DNA of 62,467 nt from a virus (Duplodnaviria > Caudoviricetes). A program made the translations under genes and the position numbers. The notes beneath the pieces were generated by a model. It saw only the letters and a program-made list of their open reading frames with translations. It searched no databases and had not been told where the DNA came from. Numbering within the stretch: the first letter of the stretch is position 1; the number at the start of each line of letters is the position of its first letter. The stretch is taken from positions 1 through 62,467 of the IMG/VR virus record IMGVR_UViG_3300005613_000065; one strand, 5' to 3'. This document shows positions 26 through 12,397 of the stretch, in pieces.

Positions 26-262
26 ATGAAAAAACTCAAATACAAAAAACAGAATGAACATCTAGAACTCTTTGCTGATGATATTCAGAAGATTGTAGAG
101 TCCTTTGCCCGTGAAGGTTATGAGGTATCTCCAGAAGATGCCTGCTCTGCTTGGATGGAATATTCCGACGCATACTGTGCTGGGTGGTTGTGTATGGGTA
201 AAAGTGGATTGACACCAGCAATAATCGAAGAACTAATGAAGTATTTTGAGGAGGAAAACTGA
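26..262 (+). CDS. hypothetical phage protein
   Basis: ORF track 11..262; ATG at 26 follows GAGGA SD; stop overlaps next start (TGATG). Confidence 0.75.
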   Translation: MKKLKYKKQNEHLELFADDIQKIVESFAREGYEVSPEDACSAWMEYSDAYCAGWLCMGKSGLTPAIIEELMKYFEEEN

Positions 263-486
263 TGACTACGAAAACCTGGCAAGTAATGAATTCTTTGGAA
301 GAAGCATTTAGTGAAATCACTGCTTTTGGATTTATGCTGGAACAACTCCAAGAAGCAGTAAATGCTAATGATGCTCGGCAGATTGTTGACATCACAGCAG
401 CACTGAATGCTTTCTATCCAGTTTATACTAACAACTGGGATAAGAAGTTTAAGATTGCTTGGAATGAGGTGATGAATGATAAATAG
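262..486 (+). CDS. hypothetical protein, paralog of 5886..6227
   Basis: ORF track; shares VMNxLEx(A)F..IT...L...LQ.A...D.KFK.A..EV pattern with 5886..6227. Confidence 0.8.
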   Translation: MTTKTWQVMNSLEEAFSEITAFGFMLEQLQEAVNANDARQIVDITAALNAFYPVYTNNWDKKFKIAWNEVMNDK

Positions 487-575
487 TATTACCTATAGGT
501 CGCATTATAGGTAGAGAGGGAGCAGAAATGCTCCTTTTCTTGTATAAATAGTATTGCGACCTATAGAGTAGAACT
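478..575 (+). promoter_or_regulatory. HEG control module copy 1: late promoter, hairpin sRNA, terminator, late promoter, complementary leader
   Basis: GATAAATA 478-485; hairpin ACCTATA/TATAGGT 491-512; terminator GGAGCA-GAAA-TGCTCC-TTTT 519-538; TATAAATA 543-550; leader TGCGACCTATAG 555-566 is the reverse complement of 493-504. Confidence 0.75.
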
Positions 576-1175
576 ATGACTTCACAAAGTCCAAGAATAT
601 ACTTGTATAAAATAACCTTTGAAGAAGTTCCTTACTATTACTATGGGATAAAGAAGGAAAAATACTTCAATCAAGAATATTGGGGTTCTCCAAAGACAAA
701 CAAGTGGTGTTGGGAACTTTATACTCCAAAAAAGCAAATATTAGAAATATTTGATTTTAGTGATGAAGGTTGGATAGAAGCACAAGAAGTTGAAAAAAGA
801 GTAATAAAACCATTCCATAATGTTGATAAATGGTGTCTTAATGAAAATTGTGGTGGCAAAATTTCCCTTAAAGTATTAAGAGAAACTGGTAAAAAGTGTG
901 GTAAAAACGGTGGGTTAATTGGTGGAGAATTGTCATATAAAATGAAAGTGGGCATACATGCAAGAAGTAAAGAACAAAAGATTGAAGATGGAAAAAAAGG
1001 TTATAGTAATGGTCTTGCTTCTATGACAAAAGAAGAAAGGCAAAAAATAGTAGTAAAAACAAACTCTCAAAAATGGATGTGCCTTGAAACTGGGTATATT
1101 ACAACTTCTGGACCACTCACGTTATATCAAAACAAAAGGGGTATAAACACTTCTAAAAGAAAACTAATAGAATAA
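576..1175 (+). CDS. GIY-YIG (Seg-like) homing endonuclease
   Basis: N-terminal IYLY...YYYG motif, conserved E and CLNEN, G/K-rich C-terminal DNA-binding part; late promoter upstream. Confidence 0.8.
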   Translation: MTSQSPRIYLYKITFEEVPYYYYGIKKEKYFNQEYWGSPKTNKWCWELYTPKKQILEIFDFSDEGWIEAQEVEKRVIKPFHNVDKWCLNENCGGKISLKVLRETGKKCGKNGGLIGGELSYKMKVGIHARSKEQKIEDGKKGYSNGLASMTKEERQKIVVKTNSQKWMCLETGYITTSGPLTLYQNKRGINTSKRKLIE

Positions 1176-1233
1176 GGACACTTCCCAAACTGGGACAAGG
1201 GCACTTGAAAACAGGTGCCCTTTCTGGTATGAT
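1176..1233 (+). promoter_or_regulatory. sigma70-type early promoter with -35 inside a stem-loop and upstream GxCA-N10-TG motif
   Basis: TTGAAA 1205-1210, 17 nt, TATGAT 1228-1233; stem AAGGGCAC/GTGCCCTT 1197-1222; GGACA-CTTCCCAAAC-TGGGAC 1176-1196. Confidence 0.7.
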
Positions 1234-1257
1234 ACTCTCATACACACAAAAACCGAA

Positions 1258-1485
1258 ATGACCCTCTTTGAGAAAACCATTCCCAAAATGTCTTACGACA
1301 TTCAATATCCCAAAGAATGGGCAAAAGAACATTTCTCTTATGGAGAGCATAGTGATACTCTAACATACATTTCAGAAGATAGTGGAGAAACCATTTGTAG
1401 TCGTTCGTTGATTATGCTTCTTCATCAAATGAATGAACGCATTTATGAACTTGAAAGTGAAATCCGACAACTCAAAGGAGAATGA
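1258..1485 (+). CDS. hypothetical protein
   Basis: ORF track, directly after promoter. Confidence 0.75.
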   Translation: MTLFEKTIPKMSYDIQYPKEWAKEHFSYGEHSDTLTYISEDSGETICSRSLIMLLHQMNERIYELESEIRQLKGE

Positions 1486-1694
1486 AAATGACCGAACAGA
1501 AACTTATTGAACTCTGGGGAGATGGAACCCAATTTGGAATGACTGAACTTGGTGCTGGTGTAATGACTGGTGCTCTCACTAATTCCTTCCGTGAGGTTGC
1601 TGTAAAGTTTGCTCTTGTAGTTGCTGATAAAGCATATGATATTGGTTATCATATTGGAGTTGAAAGTGTAAGGTCTGGTATTCTTGGAGATTGA
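1482..1694 (+). CDS. hypothetical protein
   Basis: ORF track, AGGAG SD, ATGA overlap. Confidence 0.7.
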   Translation: MKMTEQKLIELWGDGTQFGMTELGAGVMTGALTNSFREVAVKFALVVADKAYDIGYHIGVESVRSGILGD

Positions 1695-1736
1695 CTTATG
1701 CCCACGATAAATGGAACAACTAATGAGGACTGACAA

Positions 1737-1967
1737 ATGAAACTAAATGATGAAGCACTAATTACTCTGTGGATTGTGTTTGGATTTACTCTTATTCTTT
1801 CTTTACTATGTGGTGGGTTTTATGTTAGTATTCAGAAACAAAGTTTGTATAAGCAAACTTATAACAAATCTATGGAGTGTCGTATTGCTTTCAAAGGTGG
1901 AAGTCCAACAGAAGTAAATTCTTATTGTGGTGAAATTCCTAAACTTGGAGATTTTGTAGTAAAATGA
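1737..1967 (+). CDS. hypothetical membrane protein
   Basis: ORF track; N-terminal hydrophobic helix. Confidence 0.75.
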   Translation: MKLNDEALITLWIVFGFTLILSLLCGGFYVSIQKQSLYKQTYNKSMECRIAFKGGSPTEVNSYCGEIPKLGDFVVK

Positions 1968-2164
1968 AGTTATCAGCACACGAATTAGCAGTTATTATTG
2001 ACACAATCAACCAGTCTCTAAAGGTATCAAATTGGAGTGGTTATTATACTCAAAAATCAAGGGAGAGTGTAAGGGATTTGATTTCCATGATTATGGATGA
2101 AATGAGTGTAGAAGTCATCACAGACAAACCAAACTTCACAATTGATGCTGACACAGGTATTTGA
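1964..2164 (+). CDS. hypothetical protein, probable paralog of 2465..2653
   Basis: ORF track; L.A..L.VI.DT...Y....RE.V pattern shared. Confidence 0.75.
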   Translation: MKLSAHELAVIIDTINQSLKVSNWSGYYTQKSRESVRDLISMIMDEMSVEVITDKPNFTIDADTGI

Positions 2165-2165
2165 G

Positions 2166-2465
2166 ATGACTGAAATGACTTTGATATCTGATAGTGAAGA
2201 TGTTTATAACAACTTCATAAAAATTAAAAAAGCATCAGAAGAAATTCTCCAAAAACATAAGAAATCCACAGAAAAATTTAGTGGAGAAACTTATGGTGAT
2301 TTGGATGTTGTGGATGTTTATGTATCTTATCATATGGATGGAGATATTCATTATCATATTTTGATTGAAGAGTGTTCTCCAACTGCTTATGATTTTTGTA
2401 AGTTTATGGTAGAATGTCTCAAAGACAAACTTGGGTTTTATGTGAATGTGGAGTGTGAATGGTGA
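2166..2465 (+). CDS. hypothetical protein
   Basis: ORF track 2142..2465; ATG at 2166 just after the previous stop. Confidence 0.75.
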   Translation: MTEMTLISDSEDVYNNFIKIKKASEEILQKHKKSTEKFSGETYGDLDVVDVYVSYHMDGDIHYHILIEECSPTAYDFCKFMVECLKDKLGFYVNVECEW

Positions 2466-2653
2466 TGACTAGACCAACTTTGAATGCTCTTGACCTAATG
2501 GTAATCACAGATACTTTGAGGAGAACTCTTTCTATTGCTAGATTTGAGAATGTTCTTGGTGGATATTCAAAAGAAGCAAGAGAGAATGTTTCTAATAAAG
2601 TTCAGGATATTTTGAGAACTATGGAATTATCTGTGGAGAATACTGATGACTGA
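2465..2653 (+). CDS. hypothetical protein
   Basis: ORF track 2459..2653; TGATG coupling. Confidence 0.75.
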   Translation: MTRPTLNALDLMVITDTLRRTLSIARFENVLGGYSKEARENVSNKVQDILRTMELSVENTDD

Positions 2654-2810
2654 AAATTATTATAACGATTACCCAAACGAACCTATTGGTGGTCGTAATC
2701 CTTATTATCGTTGTTCTTATTGTAAGATTAGTGACCCACAAATCAACGGACAACTAAAAAATCACGCAGAATGGTGTGAGTATCGCATAGAAATGGAGGC
2801 ACGGAAATAA
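2646..2810 (+). CDS. small hypothetical protein with CxxC...HxxxC
   Basis: read by hand: MTENYYNDYPNEPIGGRNPYYRCSYCKISDPQINGQLKNHAEWCEYRIEMEARK; fills gap, coupled at both ends. Confidence 0.7.
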   Translation: MTENYYNDYPNEPIGGRNPYYRCSYCKISDPQINGQLKNHAEWCEYRIEMEARK

Positions 2811-2992
2811 TGAAAGTTTATGATTACCGAATTGAAGAGAAACTTAATGTGGATACTATGAAACAACCTGTGTATCATTATGTTGAATACCATCCATCAT
2901 ATTGCTGTCCCAAATGTGGAGAACAAATCGGTTGGTTGGGAGGATTTTTTAACTTCTTTATTCCAAATTATCATAGGTGTGAAAATGAATAA
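2810..2992 (+). CDS. hypothetical protein with CPKC motif
   Basis: ORF track; GGAGG SD. Confidence 0.65.
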   Translation: MKVYDYRIEEKLNVDTMKQPVYHYVEYHPSYCCPKCGEQIGWLGGFFNFFIPNYHRCENE

Positions 2993-3185
2993 ACCTTATT
3001 TGCTGATTGCTGGAGACAATTATTACCCTGATGGTGATACTGGTGATTGGGTTGGGTGTTTCTCTACCTATGAGGAAGCAAAGGCACAAGTAGAACCCAG
3101 AAAAACCAACGGATATACTGTAAATGGTCGGGATTGGGGTTGTGATTGGTATGAGATTATAGACCTTCGTGAATGGACTGAATGA
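2985..3185 (+). CDS. hypothetical protein
   Basis: ORF track 2880..3185; likely start MNKPYLL at 2985. Confidence 0.7.
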   Translation: MNKPYLLIAGDNYYPDGDTGDWVGCFSTYEEAKAQVEPRKTNGYTVNGRDWGCDWYEIIDLREWTE

Positions 3186-3334
3186 TGATTGAAATGATTA
3201 AAACTCTACTTAAATTCTTATACTCAAAAGAAATAGAAGTTGCTCCTGGTGTTTTTTGGTTGGGTGGAGTATTATATGAGAACAGAAACCGACCAACGAC
3301 ACCACCACCACTTAAATTGAAGACCTCAAAATGA
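3182..3334 (+). CDS. small hypothetical protein
   Basis: read by hand; ATGA overlaps at both ends. Confidence 0.55.
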   Translation: MMIEMIKTLLKFLYSKEIEVAPGVFWLGGVLYENRNRPTTPPPLKLKTSK

Positions 3335-3483
3335 CTGAATACAACTATCCAAAATGGGAAGAGGTTTATACAAACGAACTTACTCTTCAAGCACTCTTTG
3401 AGAAACTTATTGATGTTGAAAATGGACTGAAAGATGGGATTTATGAACTTGACCAAAGAATTGAGAAGTTAGAAGAACGATGA
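3331..3483 (+). CDS. small coiled-coil hypothetical protein
   Basis: read by hand: MTEYNYPKWEEVYTNELTLQALFEKLIDVENGLKDGIYELDQRIEKLEER. Confidence 0.65.
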   Translation: MTEYNYPKWEEVYTNELTLQALFEKLIDVENGLKDGIYELDQRIEKLEER

Positions 3484-3679
3484 CTGACGAACAACTACTC
3501 AATTCACTACAAGGAACTATGGCAACGATTGGCCTGTATTCAATAAAAAAGAAGCAATTGATGAGTATCGTATAGATACGATTGAGGAACGACTTACTCG
3601 TATTGAAGATAAAATTGATTTACTCATTACTCAACTCAAAATAAAGTTTTATAAGAAAAATGATGGGACATCCAGATGA
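3480..3679 (+). pseudogene. frameshifted small ORF (or -1 frameshift gene)
   Basis: ATG 3480 frame stops at 3575; a protein-like -1 frame (EAIDEYRIDTIEERLTRIEDKIDLL...) continues from 3551 to 3679. Confidence 0.4.
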
Positions 3680-4313
3680 TATTATACTCACAAATCCCTC
3701 AAAGATGTTTGAGTATGAAAGATTAGCAAGAAATATTGATAATTGTGAGAATGTAGAGGAACTACAGATTTCACTCAAAGGTATGTTAAAGTTGTATATG
3801 AAACAACAAGAAGTAACGGCATCAGTATTAAAAGAGAAGGTGAAAGAAACCGCACAAGAACGGGGAGAACGACTTCATAAAGATGTGGAAAGAGTTGTGA
3901 AGGAGAGTGTGAAATGGTGTGAGGAAAATCCCGATAAAGACCCATTAGATTGGTTGAAACCTCAAACACCAGAAGAAATTGAGAAATCATTAAGGGAAGC
4001 ATTTAGAGAGGCACAAAAAACAGAAAAGTGGAAAGAAATTCAAAAATTGATTGATGAAGAAGATAATGATAAGAACTTCAAGAATTCTCTTGACATTATC
4101 AAAGAATGGGGAGAGAAGAATAAACCACCTACTCTAAAAGAACTCTTGTGGGAATGGTGGGAGGACATTTTTACTGTTGATAGTGATTTAGATGCTGATG
4201 CTTCTATTGATGTTCTGGTAGATAAGATTGAGGAATTTCTCCCAAAAGAACACGAAACTAACAGTCATAAATGGAATGAGTGTATTAGAACAATCAAGTC
4301 CAAGTTGAGGTAG
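3660..4313 (+). CDS. hypothetical protein; N-terminal ~55 aa resemble NblA-like helix-loop-helix
   Basis: ORF track; SKMFEYERLARNID...LKLYMKQQEV N-terminus; NblA likeness is by eye only. Confidence 0.7.
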   Translation: MMGHPDDIILTNPSKMFEYERLARNIDNCENVEELQISLKGMLKLYMKQQEVTASVLKEKVKETAQERGERLHKDVERVVKESVKWCEENPDKDPLDWLKPQTPEEIEKSLREAFREAQKTEKWKEIQKLIDEEDNDKNFKNSLDIIKEWGEKNKPPTLKELLWEWWEDIFTVDSDLDADASIDVLVDKIEEFLPKEHETNSHKWNECIRTIKSKLR

Positions 4314-4410
4314 ATAAATAATAATGCCTGTAGGTCGCATTATAGGTAGAGAGGGAGCAGAAATGCTCCTTTTCTTGTATAAATAATATTGCGACCTATA
4401 GAGTAGAACT
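4313..4410 (+). promoter_or_regulatory. HEG control module copy 2 (near-identical to 478-575)
   Basis: GATAAATA 4313-4320; hairpin GCCTGTA/TATAGGT 4326-4347; same GAAA terminator; TATAAATA 4378-4385; leader TGCGACCTATAG 4390-4401. Confidence 0.75.
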
Positions 4411-5100
4411 ATGACTTCACAAAGTCCAAGAATATACTTGTATAAAATTACCTTTGAAGAAGTTCCATATTACTATTATGGTGTAAAGAAGGAAGATTAT
4501 TATAATCAAGAGTATTGGGGTTCTCCAATAACTAATAAATGGTGTTGGGAATTTTATACACCAAAGAAGCAGATATTGGAGGTTTTTGATTATACTGATG
4601 AAGGTTGGTTGGAAGCACAAGAGGTTGAAAAAAGATTAATACAACCAGTTTTTAATACTGATAAGTGGTGTCTTAATGAAAATTATAGTGGTGTAGTTTC
4701 TTTAGAATGTCTCATAAGAGGTGGAAAAATTGCTGGAAATAAAAATAAAGAATTGAGGAGAGGAGTTTGTGGAATAACAAAAGAAGAAAGAAGTATAATA
4801 TCAAAAATAAATTATGAAAATGGTATTGGTATTGGTGGAATGGACTATGAAAAAAGAATTGAAATAGGAAAAAAAAGTGCTGCGAAAAATAAAAAGAATG
4901 GAGTTGCTATATTTGCTCTTACAAAAGAACAATTAAGTAATCAAGGTAAAAAAGGTGGAGCAAAAGCAGCAAAGATTATACACAATCAAAAGTGGATGTG
5001 TCTTGAAACTGGTTATATTTCAACTTCTGCTGGTGTTGTTTCTTATCAAAAAGGTAGAGGCATAGATACTTCACGGAATAATAGAAGAAAATTATCATAA
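4411..5100 (+). CDS. GIY-YIG (Seg-like) homing endonuclease, paralog of 576..1175
   Basis: first ~90 aa closely match 576..1175; divergent middle; shared C-terminal QKWMCLETGYI. Confidence 0.8.
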   Translation: MTSQSPRIYLYKITFEEVPYYYYGVKKEDYYNQEYWGSPITNKWCWEFYTPKKQILEVFDYTDEGWLEAQEVEKRLIQPVFNTDKWCLNENYSGVVSLECLIRGGKIAGNKNKELRRGVCGITKEERSIISKINYENGIGIGGMDYEKRIEIGKKSAAKNKKNGVAIFALTKEQLSNQGKKGGAKAAKIIHNQKWMCLETGYISTSAGVVSYQKGRGIDTSRNNRRKLS

Positions 5101-5106
5101 AAGAAC

Positions 5107-5135
5107 TTGACTTCAGGTGTCCTTTGTGGTATAAT
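5107..5135 (+). promoter_or_regulatory. sigma70-type promoter
   Basis: TTGACT-17 nt-TATAAT with extended TG. Confidence 0.75.
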
Positions 5136-5157
5136 AATTTTATAATTGAAAGAGACG

Positions 5158-5385
5158 ATGCCCGATTATAATCTACCAGATAAAGATGATGCTCCGTGGT
5201 TGGATACAACTTATGATGGTTTCAACGAAGAAGCACCGAATGGTGATTACATCAAGTCTTATCCACTTATCAATCGTGTAGAGGTGATCGGTAAGAATGG
5301 ACGAGAGTTTGTTCAATATGACTGCTCTAATGTTCAAATATCAGAACAAGACAACGGACGCACACTTAAGGTATTTTTATCGTGA
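5158..5385 (+). CDS. hypothetical protein
   Basis: ORF track 5146..5385; ATG at 5158. Confidence 0.7.
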   Translation: MPDYNLPDKDDAPWLDTTYDGFNEEAPNGDYIKSYPLINRVEVIGKNGREFVQYDCSNVQISEQDNGRTLKVFLS

Positions 5386-11651: not shown

Positions 11652-11746
11652 GATAAATAATAATGCTTAATCGTGGTTGTTTAAGCAAATGAAGGGGTCT
11701 TAATGATCCCTTTTTTAATAAATAATAATAACCACGATTAAAGCAG
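11652..11746 (+). promoter_or_regulatory. HEG control module copy 3 (different sequence, same architecture)
   Basis: GATAAATA 11652-11659; hairpin TGCTTAA/TTAAGCA 11664-11687; terminator GGGGTC/GATCCC+T6 11694-11716; AATAAATA 11717-11724; leader ATAACCACGATTAA 11728-11741 complementary to 11667-11680. Confidence 0.75.
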
Positions 11747-12397
11747 ATGGAATACTACACTTACGCATATTTGCGCGAAGATGGATCACCCTACTACATT
11801 GGTAAGGGTAAAGGAAATAGAGCATATAATCAGCATAAAAGAAAAGGAATAGGTTTTTTGCCAGTTCCACCAAAAGATAGAATAATCAAACTCAAGCAGA
11901 ATCTCACCGAAAAAGAAGCATTTAGACATGAAATCTATATGATTGCTGTTTTTGGTAGAAAAGATTTGGGAACAGGTATTTTAATAAATCTTACTGATGG
12001 TGGAGAAGGATCATCTGGTGCTATTCCTTGGAATATAGGTAAGAAACACTCTCAAGAAATAGTTGAGAAGATAAGAAAAAAAGCAACAGGAAGAATACTG
12101 GATGAGAATACCAAACAAAAAATGAGTAAATCTCATAAAGGCATAAAACATACAGAAGAAACAAAGAAACTAATATCACAAAAACAACTAGGGGAAAATA
12201 ATCATAATTTTCAATATGTTTGGATATTTACCTTTGAAAGTGGTGAAGTTGTCAAAACATCAAGTATGCCAAGTTGGTGTAAAAATAATGGATATGATAA
12301 AGCAGCATTGATGAGAGTGTGTAAAGGTCAAGTTGGAAGACACAAAGACATTGTGACAGTTGAGAAAGTGTCACACAACCCCTTCCAACGGGCATAA
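11747..12397 (+). CDS. GIY-YIG homing endonuclease with NUMOD3 repeats
   Basis: YTYAY...YYIGKG...[12 protein letters not shown]; [21 protein letters not shown]3-type repeats. Confidence 0.85.

Follow-up and report, generated by a model that had tools for sequence, protein, structure and literature searches.

A mobile, covarying cassette with two late-promoter motifs upstream of homing-endonuclease genes in T4-like cyanophages, and its possible role as an antisense RNA unit

Phages have to live with selfish nucleases such as homing endonucleases and TnpB. To our knowledge, limitation of their dose is known for only a few T4 genes, where it is always achieved by cis hairpins or autorepression. 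The locus described here raises the question of whether such a gene might instead be held in check by a small RNA made on the same strand, directly upstream of it. It lies at positions 478-575 of the IMG/VR virus record IMGVR_UViG_3300005613_000065, a stretch of 62,467 nucleotides (nt) that is called the window below and is a 62-kb piece of a T4-like cyanophage (with 97% identity to S-PM2 over bases 1228-1694). An earlier note, made from the letters of the window, had proposed that a homing-endonuclease gene is preceded here by its own small RNA, antisense to the leader of the messenger RNA (mRNA). Our analysis indicates that the segment belongs to a family of mobile cassettes in which an upstream arm and the mRNA leader are kept complementary, and that the upstream half may be a separate short RNA. 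The parts of this cassette (cassette 1) and its flanking genes are as follows.

262-486, plus strand: upstream open reading frame (ORF) of 74 amino acids, whose stop codon (TAG, 484-486) falls in P1
478-485, plus strand: P1, late-promoter-like motif GATAAATA, overlapping that stop codon
491-512, plus strand: hairpin H1, stem 491-498 with 505-512, loop GUCGCA; the anti-leader occupies 489-504
513-541, plus strand: terminator-like hairpin, core GGGAGCA-GAAA-UGCUCC at 518-534, followed by UUUUCUU
543-550, plus strand: P2, canonical late promoter TATAAATA, with its predicted transcription start (+1) near 556
555-575, plus strand: leader of the endonuclease mRNA, in which 555-566 and 568-571 are complementary to 489-504
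576-1175, plus strand: type A free-standing homing-endonuclease gene, 199 amino acids, with a divergent GIY-YIG-like N-terminus and a shared C-terminal domain

Both promoter motifs, both hairpins, the leader complement and the 9-nt gap to the ATG were found where the earlier note had placed them. H1, with arms ACCTATA (491-497) and TATAGGT (506-512) flanking GGTCGCAT, was correctly located but differs in size, as it folds with 8 base pairs (bp) and a 6-nt loop rather than the 7 bp and 8 nt described; in cassette 1 it starts at the predicted +1 of P1. The 12-bp exact complement is also present: TGCGACCTATAG at 555-566 is the exact reverse complement of 493-504 and ends 9 nt before the ATG at 576, and the pairing can be extended, as had been seen, over a single bulged base (A567) through 568-571 and 489-492. 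On one continuous RNA, additional pairing of 573-577 with 483-487 would reach up to the A and U of the start codon. The fold of RNA 470-600 has an energy of -50.9 kcal/mol, compared with -22.3 +/- 3.3 for 200 dinucleotide shuffles (z -8.55), none of which was as good. As a 12-nt direct repeat, ATAAATAGTATT, runs from position 2 of both the P1 and the P2 motif, the two units start alike and then bear mutually complementary sequence.

To what extent is this complementarity a product of selection? A protein-anchored search of viral contigs yielded 52 loci. The gene N-terminus was present at 44 sites (40 of the 52 loci, phages S-SRM01 and B3, and two copies in the window), and 43 of these carry a NNTAAATA motif at the P1 position, the exception being L045, whose gene is decaying. 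With four exact duplicates dropped, 39 distinct protein-anchored cassettes were obtained. RNAalifold applied to a MAFFT alignment of all 39 recovered only seven pairs because indels shifted subgroups out of register, and it was replaced by a gapless subgroup of 19 sequences and by an alignment-free comparison of cognate and non-cognate energies. In the latter, the cognate duplex between arm and leader averages -23.8 kcal/mol, compared with -11.5 +/- 4.3 for non-cognate combinations, and the cognate partner is the best or near-best in every one of the 39 cassettes. In the gapless subgroup a 15-bp helix is 97.2% paired, with seven pairs changed on both sides; when the partner is slid by 1-3 columns, pairing falls to 36-52%. 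No shuffle out of 500 did as well as this helix on five of six whole-structure measures; on the sixth, further pair types, 19 did.

A covariance model built from the 19-sequence subgroup recovered all of the protein-anchored cassettes together with new ones in front of other genes, including a third in the window. A grammar scan for pairs of NNTAAATA motifs with a folded stretch between them and a duplex energy of -15 kcal/mol or lower gave 60 distinct cassettes. Across these 60, the duplex is 14-21 bp long (mean 16.9); it begins at the fifth nt after P2 in 34, and in 44 it stops 5-6 nt short of the AUG. The base pairs total 1011, of which 62 are G·U; the 1x1 mismatches number nine and are all UU, GA, AA or GG, with no A·C. 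Tolerance of G·U with no A·C points to an RNA of the plus strand, an asymmetry that a constraint on the DNA or on the minus strand would not give. We conclude from these substitution patterns that the pairing is a selected RNA pairing on the plus strand, and the complementarity first seen in the window is real, conserved and covarying.

The arms are far from conserved in sequence. Within the subgroup, arm and leader cores vary by 0.83-0.98 bits per column, the same as free spacer, compared with 0.10-0.15 for the terminator and the rest of H1. Arm cores as variable as spacer within a frozen scaffold are what is expected of a specificity determinant, referred to here as an address. The homologous genes of S-SRM01 and B3 have the same layout with wholly different arm sequences that are still complementary.

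The order of the parts is constant: P1 (N[A/C]TAAATA), a 5-nt spacer, H1, a GC-rich tetraloop hairpin with a U-run, P2, leader and AUG. P2 is TATAAATA in 57 of the 60 cassettes and stands between arm and leader in every one. The genes behind the cassettes are of type A (39), canonical GIY-YIG/NUMOD3 type (10), a second GIY-like type (7), HNH type (3) and, in one case, TnpB. The TnpB gene (L068:307-1503, minus strand of the locus, 399 amino acids) has the cassette just upstream and encodes a Pfam OrfB_IS605 domain (E 4e-29) along with Cas12f1-like TNB and HTH_OrfB_IS605 domains, so the module is not confined to classical homing endonucleases. Six leader types are common to different nuclease types, and identical arms serve GIY-YIG-like, HNH and type D genes. 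To judge from these distributions, cassettes have clearly been shuffled between genes and are a generic mobile module, and the idea that the endonuclease has a small RNA of its own was too narrow.

Many cassettes can occur in one genome. On a 136-kb contig (G004: L059, L064, L069, L073-L078), cassettes precede nine nuclease genes, which fall into four types; eight addresses are in use, one of them in two cassettes, and a single compensated base pair is all that separates two of the addresses. There are six cassettes in S-SRM01 and three in B3, and B23 is also a carrier; these three were the only isolates matched in the phage collection.

Two further observations concern cassette structure. The cassette of an HNH gene, L056:304-408 (= L067), is a natural chimera with the arm of one address type and the leader of another, which cannot pair; its leader has no match to the other cassette on the same 13-kb contig either, the contig being 6% of a genome. 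Several cassettes have one or two extra near-copies of TATAAAC(T)NT(T) directly before P2, which are short tandem duplications of the promoter region. The loci are L020:1373-1503, L009, L021, L022, L024, L025, L029, L038 and L039.

If the upstream half is a transcription unit, P1 should look like a promoter of this phage group. The available text on cyanophage S-PM2 gives NATAAATA as the late-promoter consensus (PMC2984593). Position 2 of P1, which was left free by a scan that required TAAATA, is A in 47 of the 60 cassettes and C in 13, and never G or T. Outside the cassettes the window contains 14 NATAAATA sites, with any first base, and 10 of them have the start of an ORF of at least 50 amino acids 14-40 nt downstream. 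ATAAATA is found 20 times on the coding (plus) strand of the window and once on the minus strand, with 32.3 +/- 5.5 predicted by dinucleotide shuffles for both strands summed; CTAAATA is likewise found once on the non-coding strand. In a complete 236-kb relative (G002, L081-L092), ATAAATA occurs 60 times in sense and 6 times in antisense orientation where composition predicts 78 and 65, and CTAAATA 27 and 5 times where it predicts 41 and 43. The control heptamers in this genome gave sense and antisense counts of 21 and 25 (GTAAATA), 42 and 31 (TTAAATA) and 19 and 39 (ATAAATG). These counts point to strong purging of stray late promoters from the non-coding strand and suggest that the group also uses CTAAATA as a second functional core. 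Since both cores are purged, they would be active wherever they stand, and the retention of P1 would be meaningful. The upstream late promoter of the earlier note has a motif that fits the late-promoter core of the group and appears to belong to the cassette. Derivation of P1 from the insertion target was considered and rejected on weak evidence, namely that a gene-less allele diverges 2 nt before P1 and that P1 is present in every genomic context examined.

The sequence that follows P1 has the form expected of a small RNA unit. P1, like P2, is followed by an AT-rich spacer of 5 nt. With +1 at the sixth nt after the promoter 8-mer, the H1 stem begins on the first base of the P1 RNA in 57 of the 60 cassettes and on the second in the other three. 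H1 is kept by compensation, with 27 distinct complementary outer stems among the 60. In each of the 39 protein-anchored cassettes, the RNA between P1 and P2 folds into H1 and a second, GC-rich hairpin, which has a loop of the GAAA or UUCG type and is followed by a U-run abutting P2. On average, 9.1 nt of the anti-leader are in the H1 loop and 5.2 in its 5' strand, and the loop of cassette 1 has 6. When the short RNA was cofolded with 70 nt of mRNA, the net energy was -13.4 +/- 2.5 kcal/mol if the two were cognate (lower than -5 in 59 of 60) and -2.4 +/- 2.5 for 350 non-cognate pairs; in this model, pairing with the mRNA more than repays the opening of H1. An Rfam scan of 300-5300 returned only chance-level matches of snoRNA type.

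We tentatively favour, with a probability that nearly reaches an even chance, a separate short RNA acting in trans with a cis lock as built-in backup. The region would be the 5' control cassette of a free-standing homing-endonuclease gene, acting by RNA-RNA pairing. Late in infection P1 and P2, both late-class promoters, would fire. P1 would give an RNA of ~50-60 nt consisting only of H1, whose 5' strand and loop are the anti-leader, and the intrinsic terminator. P2, ~65 nt downstream, would give the endonuclease mRNA, the first 15-20 nt of which complement the anti-leader. The H1 loop, with ~9 free complementary nt, would touch the unstructured 5' end of the mRNA and H1 would open; the resulting 14-21 bp duplex, ending 5-6 nt before the AUG, would keep the 30S subunit off. 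The most likely consequence of the pairing is such a block of translation initiation, through which the short RNA would lower the translation of a nuclease that may do harm. Every copy that shares the leader could be a target, here the genes at 576 and 4411, and the paralog that the earlier note expected to be silenced in trans does have a near-identical cassette with the same leader, making cross-silencing possible. Read-through transcripts, from P1 or from upstream genes, would carry both partners and lock themselves in cis. A separate RNA is given the edge because it alone explains why the promoter motif is conserved, the spacing fixed and the address hypervariable, and why H1 and the terminator are there. 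We regard the anatomy, covariation, strand and energetics as established, and from them, at the level of sequence, we infer promoter and terminator activity, the short RNA and repression.

Several points weigh against a separate RNA. In 31 of the 55 cassettes that have an ORF upstream, this ORF ends within the P1 8-mer (offset +2 or +6), on its TAA or on TA and the base that follows; the mobile cassette supplies the preceding gene's stop codon in two of three reading frames, and this role is another possible reason for conservation of P1. Thirteen of the 60 P1 sites are CTAAATA, a variant whose promoter activity is deduced only from the strand bias. The position of +1 is that of T4 late promoters and is presumed to apply here. 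The 5.2 nt of anti-leader in the H1 stem are, on average, locked there, and at positions where H1 and the leader make conflicting demands, the arm pairs with the leader in 19 of 19 cases and with the H1 3' strand in 11 of 19. A simple terminator scan listed none of the cassette hairpins, probably because the A-tract pairs with the U-tract and the tail rule fails. The matching public RNA runs are two in number, match a small share of words in contigs of relatives and give no starts, ends or strand, and no transcriptome was found for any cassette-carrying isolate. The set of 60 was picked by a duplex and fold filter, which makes its pairing figures partly circular, and the existence of the pairing rests on the 39 protein-anchored cassettes. 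Finally, in the read-through RNA from the P1 +1 to AUG+30, the minimum-energy fold holds at least 10 arm-leader pairs in 60 of 60 cassettes. The complementarity on which the earlier note based its trans repressor is borne out, with energetics that favour the pairing, but the same complementarity also forms a classical cis lock, which that note overlooked.

The best-surviving alternative is that this lock, of the type found in T4, is all there is. The 5' arm would then serve only to sequester the leader and ribosome-binding region on leaky upstream transcripts, leaving the P2 mRNA open; P1 would be kept as a stop codon for ORFs read in from upstream (its TAA does close them in the 31 cassettes noted above), as a recombination handle or as a harmless promoter, and H1 would merely park the arm. 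We give this an appreciable probability, though one clearly below even. It agrees with the folding of read-through RNAs, in which the zone from -13 to +3 is 62% paired, compared with 39% in P2 transcripts, and with the extension of the window helix to the A and U of the AUG. The cis lock is also an established T4-type mechanism, shown for I-TevI and described for I-TevII, I-TevIII, segB and Aeh1 mobE in the available text of PMC2988022, and cis hairpins with TATAAATA have been proposed before cyanophage-like endonuclease genes (PMC2677866, available text). However, a cis-only lock leaves the [A/C]TAAATA at P1 unaccounted for in genomes that purge this motif, as it does the fixed 5-nt spacing between P1 and H1 and the compensated stems of H1, a hairpin it does not need. 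A strong-looking terminator inside the locking hairpin would remove most of the RNAs to be locked, and arm cores that evolve as fast as unconstrained spacer are unusual for a purely structural stem, as comparison with the terminator shows.

It is improbable that the duplex, formed in trans or in cis, is instead a processing or stability signal, with cutting by RNase III or protection from RNase E setting, and maybe raising, the half-life of the mRNA. Antisense protection from RNase E in cyanophage infection is reportedly the subject of a published title, and the 14-21 bp duplex does cover the very 5' end of the predicted mRNA, from the fifth nt after P2 in 34 of 60 cassettes. Its end 5-6 nt before the AUG, in 44 of 60, fits occlusion of the ribosome site.

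A role of the inverted repeat around P2 at the DNA level, as an endonuclease operator for autorepression, a cruciform or a recombination site for mobility, is very improbable: I-TevI does bind an operator that overlaps its own late promoter (PMC2988022, available text), and cassettes have been shuffled between genes with six leader types across nuclease types, but the 62 G·U pairs and lack of A·C mismatches indicate plus-strand RNA, and, as the arms before GIY-YIG-like, HNH and type D genes can be identical, they do not follow the specificity of the protein. Arms that act as a protein operator were rejected on the same two grounds.

Besides cassette 1 and its gene, the window contains the following related features.

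1199-1233, plus strand: terminator hairpin 3' of the type A gene, overlapping a sigma-70-like promoter, TTGAAA-17-TATGAT with TG
4313-4410, plus strand: cassette 2 (P1 4313-4320, H1 4326-4347, terminator 4348-4376, P2 4378-4385, leader 4390-4410)
4411-5100, plus strand: paralogous type A endonuclease gene, 229 amino acids, 64% amino-acid identity to copy 1
11652-11749, plus strand: cassette 3, with different arms, found by the covariance model (35.3 bits, E 2.4e-4); its parts are P1 11652-11659, H1 11665-11686, terminator ~11691-11716, P2 AATAAATA 11717-11724 and leader 11730-11746
11747-12397, plus strand: canonical GIY-YIG-type endonuclease gene with NUMOD3 motifs, 216 amino acids

Cassette 2 is near-identical to cassette 1, and a single A-to-G change in its arm converts an A-U pair to G·U. 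Contigs of a close relative match 399-475 of the window and then continue into a different gene via an ATGA overlap, representing an allele without the endonuclease cassette. As these contigs diverge at 476, the left edge of the insert would be 2 nt before P1. Both type A genes are followed by a sigma-70-like extended -10 promoter (TTGAAA-17-TATGAT at 1199-1233 and TTGACT-17-TATAAT at 5107-5135). The terminator/promoter module at 1199-1233 is kept in S-SRM01 and in S-PM2, the latter without a type A gene there, and we take it to resemble the promoter-early stem-loop modules that have been proposed as gene shufflers in T4-type phages. S-PM2 p178 (L006:1590-2219) matches the C-terminal 77 residues of the type A protein (43% identity, E 3e-9); this ORF lies between psbA and psbD, where it immediately follows the gene for the F-CphI homing endonuclease and is next to the annotated CfrI RNA.

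The type A protein is itself divergent. An hhalign comparison with the canonical GIY-YIG/NUMOD3 genes gave a probability of 99.7% (E 4e-26, 214 columns) and set its N-terminal Y-rich motif RIYLYKITFEEVPYYYYG on the GIY...YIG of the canonical type. PHROG 314, 'homing endonuclease', matches weakly (E 1e-4). The C-terminal region, 112-199, also matches HNH and type B genes, and NUMOD3 Pfam matches are found in those relatives. Its distribution is free-standing, sporadic and multi-copy, with two copies in the window and none at the matching S-PM2 site. A Pfam search returned no match for either type A protein, a PDB profile search no sequence match, and Foldseek against PDB with the type A model no match at E <= 0.001. 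The AlphaFold2 model has a mean predicted local distance difference test score (pLDDT) of 59, with an unfolded N-terminus (pLDDT <50 for residues 1-58). Type A therefore appears to be a homing-endonuclease-like protein, on the evidence of the profile-profile match, the weak PHROG match and the distribution, and its catalytic fold is putative.

The cassette is a compact, portable module of ~100 nt that serves five or more kinds of nuclease gene (TnpB and homing endonucleases with four types of N-terminus), and its 14-21 bp specificity segment varies freely while complementarity is kept. Pairing may be how these selfish nuclease genes stay quiet. It is quite possible, though at a chance below even, that freshwater T4-like cyanophages have a family of programmable antisense units, in which every selfish nuclease gene has a dedicated ~50-nt late RNA, made directly upstream from a promoter and terminator of its own, with an address that co-evolves with the 5' end of the mRNA. 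If so, one genome would contain a set of RNA-mRNA pairs, up to nine cassettes with eight addresses, and the units would resemble type I antitoxins or plasmid incompatibility determinants, for homing endonucleases and TnpB. Should the upstream half be an RNA in its own right, homing endonucleases would have their first described antisense regulator encoded in tandem on the same strand, and the family would offer a natural set of many distinct RNA-mRNA pairs. Were it to act in cis only, the family would still be the best-documented covarying case of a T4-type lock beyond the T-even phages, and mobile nuclease genes would be easy to annotate by it. The carriers in culture (S-SRM01, B3 and B23) make the choice between trans and cis directly testable.

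The closest published description is that of Dassa et al. 2009, whose available text reports hairpins in 15 of 16 5' untranslated regions of free-standing GIY-YIG and Vsr-like endonuclease genes at cyanophage-like metagenomic loci; ten of these hairpins include TATAAATA, and they were read as cis translational locks (PMC2677866). In that text the word 'terminator' has no occurrences, and no upstream promoter or separate RNA is described (PMC2677866). Judged from the text, figure and supplement apart, these hairpins are likely to be identical to the cassette. With the figures and supplements of the same paper apart, our literature search found no small RNA of this kind described, nor a conserved upstream promoter, an H1 at the predicted P1 +1, an internal terminator or hypervariable yet complementary arms. 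It found no paper on Syn9 start sites, and the S-SRM01 genome paper mentions neither promoters nor terminators.

In the T4-type lock, as described in the available text of PMC2988022, a late promoter lies within a stable hairpin whose 3' arm covers the ribosome-binding region; long transcripts are silent, and late transcripts lack the 5' arm. We compared the cassette with the genes under this lock (I-TevI, I-TevII, I-TevIII, segB and Aeh1 mobE, and also soc, e, 39, 25 and 26). Like them, the cassette has P2 between arm and ribosome-binding region, the 3' arm covers that region in silico, and the geometry suits a late start inside the structure, the complementarity beginning at the fifth nt after P2 in 34 of 60 cassettes, with the start itself predicted. 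Unlike in the T4-type lock, the loop of the cassette holds a hairpin resembling an intrinsic terminator, which would be expected to stop most upstream transcripts, and a further late-promoter motif lies upstream, at whose +1 begins the conserved hairpin formed by the 5' arm. Arm sequences, moreover, are hypervariable and covary, and the whole unit is mobile and common to several nuclease families.

Antitoxins of type I toxin-antitoxin systems are small antisense RNAs that block the ribosome site of the toxic gene. Phage examples of small antisense RNAs are sar of P22 and OOP of lambda (PMC12197685, available text). The predicted short RNA of the cassette is like these in consisting of a stem-loop and its own terminator, with a loop complementary to the initiation region of the target, and in having a target that encodes a potentially harmful protein. 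Antisense repressors have their own promoter, and at the level of the motif so does the cassette, with [A/C]TAAATA at P1 in 60 of 60. It differs in that its RNA would be made from the same strand, in tandem and upstream of the target, with both RNAs from the same promoter class and at the same time. CfrI, the antisense RNA of S-PM2, is ~225 nt long, comes from the opposite strand and overlaps psbA and F-CphI, according to the available text (PMC2984593). Like CfrI, the cassette is a cyanophage candidate for a non-coding RNA tied to a homing-endonuclease gene; unlike CfrI, it is a tandem unit on the same strand as its target.

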